This document shows, one piece after another, positions 51,538 through 55,588 of a stretch of 64,000 nt of DNA. A model generated the notes under the pieces. That model was not told the DNA's origin and did not search any database. It worked only from the letters and a program-made list of their open reading frames with translations. The stretch's first letter is position 1; each line of letters starts with the position of its first letter. A program made the translations under genes and the position numbers. Origin of the DNA: Armatimonadota bacterium (GTDB lineage: Bacteria > Armatimonadota > UBA5829 > DSUL01); NCBI GenBank assembly GCA_039811685.1, contig JBDHZC010000005.1, positions 143,150-207,149 on the forward strand. Direction: 5' to 3'.

Positions 51538-52080
51538 TTAGTCCGCTCCCGCGCCCCAGCCGCCGGCGTACGGCAGATAGTCTCTCCACGCCTCATTGCG
51601 CTGGCCATCTACGTACTTCGTGAGGCTGACGAAAGGAACCCACTTTGGCCGTCTCGGAGGATGCGTCAGATGGAAGCCGATCTGCTGGAGGCTTTTGTCG
51701 CCCTTCTTGATGTTACATTTGCGGCAGCAGCAGACCAGATTCTCCCAGTCCGTGCGTCCGCCAAGCCGGCGCGGGATGACGTGGTCAATGGTCAGCTCAT
51801 GTGAGCGCGCGCCGCAGTACTGACAGGTGTAGTTGTCCCGTGCGAAAATTGAGCGCCTCGACAACCGCAGCCGTGGATACGGCCGCTTGATATGATAGCG
51901 CAGCCGCACAACGGAGGGACTGATCATCGTGGTACTGCACGAATGGATCTCCATGTGATCGCTATGCAGCACATCCACCTTGCCGAGGTAGATCAGCCCG
52001 ATAGCCCGCTTCATATTGCAGATGTTAATCGGTTCGTAGTCGCTGTTCAGGACCAGGACATCCTGGTTGAGTGGGTTCAT
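51538..52080 (-). CDS. HNH endonuclease with PLMP-like N-terminus (IshB-like)
   Basis: VLVLNSDYEPINI...RAI N-terminus; RDNYTCQYCG, TIDHVIP, WENLVCCCRKCNIKKG; 180 aa. Confidence 0.88.
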   Translation of the reverse strand: MNPLNQDVLVLNSDYEPINICNMKRAIGLIYLGKVDVLHSDHMEIHSCSTTMISPSVVRLRYHIKRPYPRLRLSRRSIFARDNYTCQYCGARSHELTIDHVIPRRLGGRTDWENLVCCCRKCNIKKGDKSLQQIGFHLTHPPRRPKWVPFVSLTKYVDGQRNEAWRDYLPYAGGWGAGAD

Positions 52081-52150
52081 ATATGTCCCATCGCTGCCAG
52101 AGGCTCAGCCATCTCACTGGCGTATTAGCCCCTCGGAGCGCGGACCGGCA

Positions 52151-52192
52151 ACAAAAAAGCCCGCTCTTCGTCAGGACGAGTGGGAGCGGACT
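52151..52192 (-). terminator. intrinsic terminator/attenuator upstream of HNH gene
   Basis: minus strand AGTCCGCTC...GAGCGGGCT then T-tract. Confidence 0.75.
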
Positions 52193-52361
52193 TCAGGCGC
52201 GCAAAAACATCTGGCCAGAGGTTGAATGGCGGAAGACGAACTCTTCCAGCGCCCTCTGTCTATCCTTGAGGCAAATCGCGTTGTGTTCAGGTGGGGTGGC
52301 GTTCATTCAGTTGACACCCGGGAAAAGCGCCGGCGAACCGGCGCAAAAACCTTTCCCAACT
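52151..52361 (-). ncRNA. putative structured leader/ncRNA containing a 37-codon uORF (52193-52306)
   Basis: three hairpins, bounded by consensus promoter and terminator. Confidence 0.55.
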
Positions 52362-52366
52362 CTTTT

Positions 52367-52396
52367 ATTATAAAAAGCCGGGACAAGGCGTGTCAA
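52367..52396 (-). promoter_or_regulatory. consensus sigma70 promoter
   Basis: minus strand TTGACA-18 bp-TATAAT. Confidence 0.8.
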
Positions 52397-52525
52397 GACG
52401 TCTTTCGGACGGGGTGATCTGAGGGTTATCAACGGGTGCGCATGGCTCTCGTTTGCAGGCTATGCTATGATGGTTTCTGGAGAGCGGATCGCGGTGCAAA
52501 GCGAGCCGCCAGAGGACAGTTAGGT

Positions 52526-52873
52526 TTGCGTCTTGTCACGCTGTTAAAGGGAAAAATCCACCGGGCCACTGTAACTGACGCCAATGTTGACTATGTTGGC
52601 AGCGTCACGGTGGATGCGGACTTGCTTGAGCGCGCGGGCATTCTGGTTGGGGAACTGGTGCACGTGTGGAACGTCACAAATGGTGAGCGCCTCACTACGT
52701 ACGCCCTGGCGGGTGAGCGCAATTCCGGTATTATCCAGGTGAATGGATCGGCGGCCCATCGGGCAAAAGCGGGTGACAAAGTCATCATTGTTGCGTTCAT
52801 ACATACAGATGAGCCTGTGGAGCCCAAAGTCGTTCTCGTGGACGACGCCAACAAGTTTGTCAAGTATCTCTAG
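52526..52873 (+). CDS. panD: aspartate 1-decarboxylase
   Basis: [16 protein letters not shown] cleavage site, [13 protein letters not shown]; TTG start after AGAGGA. Confidence 0.95.
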
Positions 52874-54817: not shown

Positions 54818-55588
54818 ATGAGACTCAAGCGACTTGTTGTGTGGTTTGTTGGCGCTGTGGCAGGGTTGTCTGTCACTGGAGCGCAGGCGACGCCGCAGCC
54901 AGCTTACATTTCCGGTGTGGGTGAGCCTTACGGGGTGAATGGCAATCTTGATGCGATGAACGCAGCCTTTGGCTCGGGAAACTGGCAGCGCTTGACGTTC
55001 TCAAATGCGGTGGCCTCCGGCGCTTTTACCCCCGGCAACTACAGCATGCTCTTTTTCGACGGCAGCGACGGATACGACGGTGAGTTCACCACCTTTATTG
55101 GGGACAACAAATCAGCGCTTGAGAACTACGTCAGCGGCGGCGGGCACGTCTTTCTGAATGCCGCACGGCAAAGCGGAGCCGATTTGGATCTGGGCTTCAG
55201 TGTGACTCTCCATTTCTACCAGGACAAGAACGCCTCTGCTTACGACTCCAATCATCCGATCTTTCACGGGCCGCTCTCGCCTACCGGAACCTCCTGGAAC
55301 GCGACCTACTTCTCGCACGACTACATTGTCAGCTCAAACGCGCAGACCATTATTAAGAACGGCATTGGGAATCCGATTCTGGCGCAACTCAACTACGGAA
55401 GCGGCGTAATCCTCTTTGGCGGCATGACCCCCAGCAGCTACCACAGCCCGGGACCAGAAGCGCTCAATTTGCGCGCAAACATTCTCAGCTATACGAATAA
55501 TTACGTCGTTCCCGAGCCGACTTCGCTTCAGATGGGACTGATGCTGGCCTTTGGAGGCTTTGGGCTGCTGCGCTCCAAAAAGCGCTGA
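54818..55588 (+). CDS. PEP-CTERM sorting domain protein
   Basis: signal peptide; C-terminus VPEPTSLQMGLMLAFGGFGLLRSKKR. Confidence 0.9.
   Translation: MRLKRLVVWFVGAVAGLSVTGAQATPQPAYISGVGEPYGVNGNLDAMNAAFGSGNWQRLTFSNAVASGAFTPGNYSMLFFDGSDGYDGEFTTFIGDNKSALENYVSGGGHVFLNAARQSGADLDLGFSVTLHFYQDKNASAYDSNHPIFHGPLSPTGTSWNATYFSHDYIVSSNAQTIIKNGIGNPILAQLNYGSGVILFGGMTPSSYHSPGPEALNLRANILSYTNNYVVPEPTSLQMGLMLAFGGFGLLRSKKR

Follow-up and report, generated by a model that had tools for sequence, protein, structure and literature searches.

Positions 51538..52396 of the window, that is, of the 64,000-nucleotide (nt) stretch of Armatimonadota DNA that was analysed as a whole, carry a gene for a small nuclease of the IshB type and, directly upstream of it, a compact unit running from a promoter to an intrinsic terminator. 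The original prediction had read this unit as a self-contained structured RNA of about 210 nt and the two together as an RNA-associated nuclease module. Every feature that it had listed (promoter, two hairpins, terminator and HNH gene) was found in place. All features of the locus, including a small open reading frame (ORF) between promoter and terminator, lie on the minus strand and are given here with the evidence for each (aa, amino acids; UTR, untranslated region; pS and pN, proportions of synonymous and nonsynonymous differences):

52391..52396 (-), -35 hexamer TTGACA of the leader promoter (promoter scan)
52367..52372 (-), -10 hexamer TATAAT of the same promoter (promoter scan)
52320..52357 (-), stem-loop in the 5' UTR, hairpin 1 of the original prediction (sequence and folding)
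52193..52306 (-), leader small ORF with ATG at 52306, 37 codons (52306..52196) and TGA at 52195..52193 (frame conservation, pS/pN)
52216..52258 (-), hairpin 2 of the original prediction, inside the leader small ORF (seen in the sequence)
52150..52192 (-), intrinsic terminator, hairpin followed by T6-G-TT (folding, compensatory pairs in the family)
52081..52149 (-), spacer of 69 nt between terminator and nuclease start codon (no promoter-like site)
51538..52080 (-), IshB-like nuclease gene, 180 aa (ORF, Pfam, family alignment)
51901..52065 (-), PLMP-like N-terminal domain, aa 6-60 (hhalign against IscB)
51667..51825 (-), HNH domain, aa 86-138 (Pfam, family alignment)

The leader promoter (52396..52367) consists of TTGACA and TATAAT separated by 18 nt, a 12/12 match to the consensus, and three promoter-like sites were observed in the region against 0.8 expected from shuffled sequences. 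The leader transcript would start near 52360. Its first 50 nt fold with -22.4 kcal/mol (z -2.2), and the terminator hairpin, with a folding energy (dG) of about -15 to -18, is followed by the run T6-G-TT. The promoter, the terminator and the leader ORF exceed what is expected by chance, and the claimed structured RNA does not.

The same arrangement was found among the relatives of the nuclease gene. The comparison set included 56 Armatimonadota loci, obtained from three homologue collections of 30, 8 and 18 loci; L046 and L047, with almost no upstream DNA, were left out of the 8-locus collection. In almost every locus the 300 nt upstream of the orthologue showed a near-consensus promoter, then about 200 nt of further sequence and then a terminator immediately ahead of the nuclease start codon, with an ORF of 35-60 codons between promoter and terminator. 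When one leader ORF chosen by its position was used as a jackhmmer query, in-frame matches were obtained in 23/56 loci, forming a class-wide ORF family. Codon statistics were calculated for a 19-codon core of 22 of these 23 sequences, one near-duplicate being dropped. The synonymous fraction of differing codon pairs was 0.382 in frame vs 0.091 and 0.053 in the other two frames, and the core included no stop codons in frame vs 12 and 15 out of frame. Within the core, serine codons alternate between TCN and AGY and arginine codons between CGN and AGR. The ratio of nonsynonymous to synonymous substitution rates (dN/dS) of the leader ORF was 0.02-0.49 in the seven of 11 pairs in which it could be estimated (dS unsaturated).

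The frame of the ORF in the window is conserved in four relatives of its own family (L002-L005), and over the last 20 codons pS was 0.64-0.75 vs a pN of 0.31-0.44. A jackhmmer search started from the small ORF of the window reached its own family alone, and hhalign did not find a link between the window-family ORF and the class-wide ORF family. In a gapless comparison anchored at the stop codon, the last 25 residues of the window ORF gave a z of 4.1 against eight tails of the class-wide family; none of 5000 shuffles scored as high and shifted registers scored far lower, but the eight tails were picked after the alignment had been seen, which makes the test supportive and not decisive. As judged from these sequence comparisons, the window ORF appears to be related to a phylum-wide family of leader small ORFs.

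The small-ORF profile is narrow in its reach. It missed the window's family (0/3, and also the window's own genome) and matched just 9/151 Armatimonadota genomes, three of them weakly and inside long frames, probably by chance. Each match was to one place per genome, and in the five genomes in which this could be checked the place was 71-103 nt upstream of the nuclease gene. The small peptides belong to no Pfam family and nothing usable was found for them in the protein Atlas; the family profile matches just eight called proteins among 5.8 billion. The peptides share a conserved core and an acidic pair, and their C-terminal tripeptide follows a conserved pattern. Judged by its codons, the leader ORF is conserved as a protein and evolves under purifying selection. 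What precedes the nuclease gene is a short leader gene that codes for protein and not a folded guide RNA.

Two departures from the usual layout of the leader were noticed. In a single genus-level group (L014, L016, L017 and L021) the usual stop codon of the leader ORF is missing, and the ORF crosses the terminator and has its stop overlapping the start codon of the nuclease gene (ATGA); the acidic N-terminus is shared among these loci and the downstream peptide is not conserved. In L020 at least four tandem copies of a repeat of about 93 nt take the place of the leader, about 400 nt upstream of the nuclease gene, and no small ORF of the usual kind was found there.

The search for RNA structure gave mainly negative results. 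The 290-nt upstream stretch as a whole had a folding z of -1.33, and 23/200 shuffled sequences folded at least as well. The Rfam covariance models, among which we take HEARO to be included, found no match in the window at E values up to 10 and nothing at the gathering score in the leaders of 20 related loci. RNAalifold produced no consensus pairs in the conserved 19-codon core of the 22 relatives. A five-leader alignment of the window's own family showed compensatory pairs in the terminator only, with a covariation term of -0.4. Hairpin 2 is not conserved (no consensus pairs, and the same negative covariation term). In the window's own family the 5' stem-loop folds strongly (z -2.2 to -3.75), but it is not a general feature: over 36 loci its mean z is -0.87, with nine below -2.

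A self-contained structured RNA of about 210 nt does not hold up at the locus: the region does not fold beyond expectation, the hairpins are not conserved and conservation lies at the amino-acid level. Neither was the supposed association of the nuclease with an omega RNA borne out, as no covariance match, no conserved multi-helix fold and no covariation supporting it were found and the unit carries a protein-coding ORF. A guide-like or omega-like RNA in this place is not supported.

The terminator is present upstream of the nuclease gene in 52/56 Armatimonadota loci, and a leader promoter matching at least 10/12 positions is found at the equivalent place in 36 of these 52. The stop codon of the leader ORF lies at most 2 nt from the first paired base of the terminator in 27/52 loci, including the window (1 nt), and 3-16 nt upstream of the hairpin in six. 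In the remaining 19 loci the ORF runs into or past the hairpin, two of these (L012 and L124) being artefacts of the automatic choice of terminator or ORF. As a control, terminator-like sites behind open frames of at least 100 codons were collected from the window's own genome. A stop codon at most 2 nt from the stem was present at 2/138 of these sites, and the stop-to-stem distance of the ordinary genes was mostly 25-60 nt, with a peak at 30-35 nt (n = 138).

No promoter-like site was detected in the 69-nt spacer that follows the terminator in the window. Within the last 130 nt before the nuclease start, a promoter-like match of 9/12 was present in just 3/52 loci and an extended -10 element in none of the 52; the T-run often lies no more than 11-20 nt ahead of the nuclease start in related loci. 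Among 67 loci of other phyla, a terminator-like hairpin was found in the last 150 nt in ten and an extended -10 element near the start in 24. On these counts, the leader module is an addition seen in Armatimonadota.

The nuclease itself is an ORF of 180 aa, with relatives of 165-190 aa. Pfam detects HNH models alone, at residues 86-138 (HNH_5, E 7e-16). Residues C86, C89, D99, H100, N114, C119 and N123 are invariant across the nuclease family and C122 is present in at least 90% of its members, as counted from a query-family alignment of 55 members, the first 74 columns of which were also used for hhalign. The zinc-binding cysteines, the catalytic histidine and the D-H/N/N residues are all retained. 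The opposing profile was made from the first 62 residues of a true IscB of 425 aa (RRXRR + HNH) from another Armatimonadota genome together with 26 relatives. The N-terminus of the nuclease family was aligned to that of IscB with a local probability of 95.2% (E 2.7e-8, score 40.4), residues 6-60 being placed on the PLMP domain, and none of 200 controls with column-shuffled IscB profiles reached this score (9.7 +/- 2.1, maximum 17.0).

The PLMP likeness emerged solely when the N-termini were compared alone. Hhalign over the whole length against one IscB matched the HNH part and not the PLMP part, and in searches against PDB chains, with the single sequence and with the profile, every hit was to an HNH domain, the best being those of IscB and Cas9 and the others those of small HNH enzymes. 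Just positions 184-243 of the NCBIfam IscB model, its HNH part, were aligned (59.8 bits vs a cut-off of 175), and neither this model nor Pfam revealed a RuvC or any further domain in the window protein. The PLMP resemblance of the N-terminus, which had been proposed from a few residues, was borne out in the profile-profile comparison with IscB and not with the Pfam RRXRR model, which gives no score for the window protein and matches 4/55 family members weakly (best E 0.0042). The comparisons support a layout with a PLMP-like domain first, an intact HNH domain after it and no RuvC, i.e. the predicted IshB architecture at 180 aa.

The conserved ORF, the conserved terminator, the unusual distance between stop codon and stem and the lack of a detectable second promoter together lead to an interpretation that we hold with somewhat better than even confidence: the unit would be a leader-ORF attenuator in front of a chromosomal IshB-like (PLMP+HNH) nuclease gene. 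A strong promoter of the sigma-70 type would start a transcript with a short 5' UTR, the leader ORF of 37 codons would be translated, and its stop codon would come to lie directly against the 5' arm of the intrinsic terminator, behind which would follow the promoterless nuclease gene. Termination would be the default for most transcripts, yielding a small-ORF messenger RNA of about 210 nt. The polymerase would continue into the nuclease gene only if, on its arrival at the T-run, the 5' arm of the hairpin is occupied by a ribosome completing the leader ORF, and the synthesis of the nuclease would then be tied to leader translation and stay far below its level. To judge from the layout of the locus, production of the nuclease probably requires transcription to pass the terminator. 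This dependence on read-through, the occlusion by the ribosome and any signal modulating it are what we infer from the arrangement.

The interpretation as a translation-coupled attenuator is based on the conserved geometry and on experiments with stop codons near a terminator in Escherichia coli. In the tR2 experiments reported in PMC4824070, termination fell from about 90% to less than 10% when the stop codon was shifted from 28 to 5 base pairs (bp) before the terminator, and the effect was abolished by uncoupling translation.

Several observations weigh against the translation-coupled attenuator. The same source (PMC4824070) describes ribosomes as often lagging behind the polymerase in the first ~100 bp, and the leader is short (a UTR of about 54 nt and an ORF of 114 nt), so occlusion may be inefficient; it may in any case hinge on a coupling of transcription and translation in Armatimonadota, which is an assumption. 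An antiterminator pairing was not detected: in a duplex test of the terminator 5' arm against the ORF the window had a z of 0.05, and over 36 loci the mean z was -0.35 and the median 0.14, with six loci below -2, and therefore no classical switch is present. The peptide is conserved well beyond the need of plain coupling, which points to a function of its own. The 69-nt spacer of the window may house a promoter of other than the sigma-70 type. Also the relationship of the window ORF to the phylum-wide family depends on the stop-anchored test with tails chosen after alignment.

The RNA-library contigs are of limited help here. Contig X2 spans 52041..52194 and contig X1 52075..52314, both across the terminator into the nuclease start, and the depth of X1 was 21 vs 4-5 for contigs in the nuclease body. 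Positions 51858..52040 and 52315..52400 were left uncovered by the contigs, which proves nothing. The contigs give a weak hint of deeper transcription of the leader and of read-through at the terminator, but they cannot show transcript ends or levels, and DNA carry-over is possible.

The small ORF could instead encode a free-standing micro-protein that partners or restrains the nuclease as an inhibitor, an antitoxin-like protein or a cofactor, the terminator setting a high ratio of peptide to nuclease. Purifying selection on a peptide with a conserved core, acidic pair and C-terminal pattern agrees with this, as does the constant position of the small ORF beside the nuclease gene, and with a strong promoter at the front and a terminator ahead of the enzyme gene, the small partner would be made in the excess typical of inhibitor-enzyme pairs. 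However, the peptide evolves far faster than the nuclease and is unrecognisable by profile between families in which the nucleases are 60-79% identical, and in L014, L016, L017 and L021 a frame read on across the terminator takes the place of its C-terminal part. In the 67 loci of other phyla the nuclease family lacks the peptide, and the stop codon abutting the hairpin is left unexplained. A micro-protein is a possibility that we regard as rather doubtful.

Following the logic of TnaC and SpeFL applied to an intrinsic terminator, the peptide might also act while still in the ribosome, a motif in it holding the ribosome at or near the stop codon, on the terminator arm, upon a signal, by which the nuclease gene would be switched on. 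Of 25 sequences tallied by eye, 11, including that of the window, carry an acidic pair at 15 residues from the C-terminus. At this distance the pair would be inside the ribosomal exit tunnel while the stop codon occupies the A site. The patterned last three residues, the stop codon abutting the hairpin and the purifying selection on a peptide always accompanied by this terminator fit such a regulatory role. On the other hand, the spacing of the acidic pair varies between 11 and 23 residues across lineages, the type of stop codon is not conserved and stalling itself is purely putative; to our knowledge the leader peptide contains no known arrest motif. Regulation by a nascent peptide is accordingly judged improbable. 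Its most specific form, in which the leader peptide would be a new nascent-chain sensor whose acidic motif about 15 residues from the C-terminus licenses transcription of the nuclease under a specific condition, is a similarly long shot.

An omega-RNA-like guide or scaffold RNA of about 210 nt binding the PLMP-HNH protein would be in keeping with the PLMP-like domain, with the discrete promoter-to-terminator unit and with a hairpin just upstream of the gene as in the IsrB omega RNA, but it is already largely refuted and barely credible given the negative Rfam, consensus-structure and folding results, the unconserved hairpins, the conservation by codon, the lack of the unit in relatives of other phyla and the lack of insertion sequence (IS) ends or TnpA.

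A bolder variant of the nascent-chain sensor deserves mention. According to the part of PMC9581776 that deals with it, the PLMP domain of IsrB contacts the 3'-terminal hairpins of the omega RNA and the Shine-Dalgarno region just upstream of the gene. Because of these contacts with omega-RNA hairpins (PMC9581776), it is conceivable by analogy that the nuclease uses its PLMP domain to bind its own leader at the terminator hairpin and the ribosome-binding region, giving feedback control. If true, such binding would offer a glimpse of how the pairing of omega RNA and protein could have begun.

The unit was compared with known attenuators. In attenuation of the pyrBI type in E. coli, a closely trailing ribosome can prevent the hairpin from forming and no antiterminator is needed. 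The leader ORF of this type ends at, inside or beyond an intrinsic terminator located before the regulated gene, and the same was found here. Repression by ribosomes of terminators near stop codons is treated in PMC4824070. By its sequence the unit has the features that characterize the type, namely a coding leader ORF, a terminator with no later promoter and an ORF end close to the hairpin. It differs from pyrBI in that the leader peptide of the window locus is conserved under purifying selection and in that the regulated gene encodes a nuclease and does not belong to a biosynthetic operon. With the attenuators of the trp, his and leu operons the unit shares the order of promoter, leader ORF, terminator and gene, but not the alternative antiterminator pairing, and no run of regulatory codons was noticed at the locus, though this was not formally tested. 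In those attenuators the terminator is placed in PMC4824070 at more than 20 bp from the leader ORF, vs 0-2 nt here. By this comparison the regulatory unit would be most like an attenuator of the pyrBI type, not of the trp type.

The omega or HEARO RNAs of IscB and IsrB resemble the unit in lying directly upstream of a PLMP-nuclease gene, with a terminal hairpin beside the ribosome-binding site. The unit of the window differs from them in that it is protein-coding and lacks a covariance match, a guide segment and any conserved multi-helix fold. The name IshB was reportedly given by Altae-Tran et al. in 2021. In the passages of the secondary sources that mention them, IshB proteins are PLMP + HNH relatives of IscB and IsrB of about 180 aa (PMC10734217, PMC11610941, PMC13284715), and their association with omega RNA is stated loosely (PMC11610941). 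The window protein agrees with them in its length of 180 aa, its PLMP-like N-terminus, its intact HNH domain and the lack of RuvC, but differs in that the locus has no IS200/605 context and no omega-like RNA, the genome no TnpA, the gene occurs as a single copy inherited congruently with taxonomy, and the Pfam RRXRR model does not score the protein. The protein is an IshB by the structural definition of these secondary sources, not by insertion-sequence or omega-RNA context.

The nuclease gene is single-copy in its own genome. One full-length match per genome was found in 48/61 genomes searched, and 52/61 had a match at E <= 0.001; the genomes with these matches belong to Armatimonadota by source name. 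The nucleases share 76-79% identity inside the family, 60-72% across the class and 47-61% with other members of the phylum. The wider nuclease family is large, with 159 cluster representatives at E <= 1e-30, and relatives occur also in Chloroflexota, Gemmatimonadota, Balneolota, Ignavibacteriota and others (at least 593 confirmed stretches). In a quick tree of 125 rows, 53 Armatimonadota rows formed one clade (Shimodaira-Hasegawa-like approximate likelihood ratio test, SH-aLRT, 97) and 59 rows a second one (SH-aLRT 100), which consisted of Chloroflexota except for one record labelled as Bacteroidota. GTDB families cluster inside the two clades, and the congruence with taxonomy is drawn from this quick tree and from the identities above.

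The Y1 transposase (IS200/605 TnpA) was not found in the window's own genome, which is 97% complete, while the control search matched 6/14 genomes. Being single-copy, following taxonomy and standing in a genome with no Y1 transposase, the nuclease looks like an old chromosomal family and not like a recently captured IS gene. The original prediction had called the module domesticated for want of visible IS200/605 ends and tnpA; the absence of tnpA stands, and domestication itself is doubtful for the same three reasons.

IshB-like PLMP-HNH proteins are mentioned in the literature as relatives of IscB and Cas9 or as their possible ancestors. In Armatimonadota such a nuclease is a vertically inherited chromosomal gene behind a conserved and almost never annotated mini-gene and a terminator, which would imply a tight, translation-linked control of a potentially dangerous enzyme. 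The locus is a candidate new example of regulation by a stop codon set against a terminator, and it calls for caution in taking every promoter-to-terminator unit that precedes a mini-nuclease for a guide RNA. In the literature consulted on IshB, on PLMP + HNH proteins and on regulation by leader peptides and terminators, no leader ORF before an IshB-like gene was found described; this statement applies to that literature alone, and the supplements of Altae-Tran et al. 2021, which lay outside it, may list the context of the family.

True IscB genes (RRXRR + HNH) were found in 2/151 sampled Armatimonadota genomes, in L031 (760-2037, minus strand, 425 aa) and in L032, and these are distinct from the PLMP-HNH gene, which is ubiquitous. 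In six of the 20 related loci (L007, L018, L019, L022, L023 and L024, e.g. L024:2104-2180) the 3' end of the nuclease gene is followed at 70-490 nt by a tRNA-Met(CAT) gene, in either orientation. The tRNA-Met of L024 has a promoter-like site of its own and presumably lacks the hallmarks of an initiator tRNA; the window has no tRNA gene.

The neighbours of the nuclease gene in the window include panD, an MFS transporter, an M48 peptidase and glycosidases. The panD gene (52436..52873, plus strand) is divergent from the leader promoter, and its Pfam match begins at residue 34 of a frame of 145 aa. Its real start is probably near 52535, and a divergent control region of about 140 nt would therefore be shared between panD and the -35 hexamer of the leader. 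Farther along the window, 54818..55588 on the plus strand encodes a secreted-looking protein of 256 aa with no Pfam match, the C-terminus of which resembles what we take to be a PEP-CTERM sorting signal.

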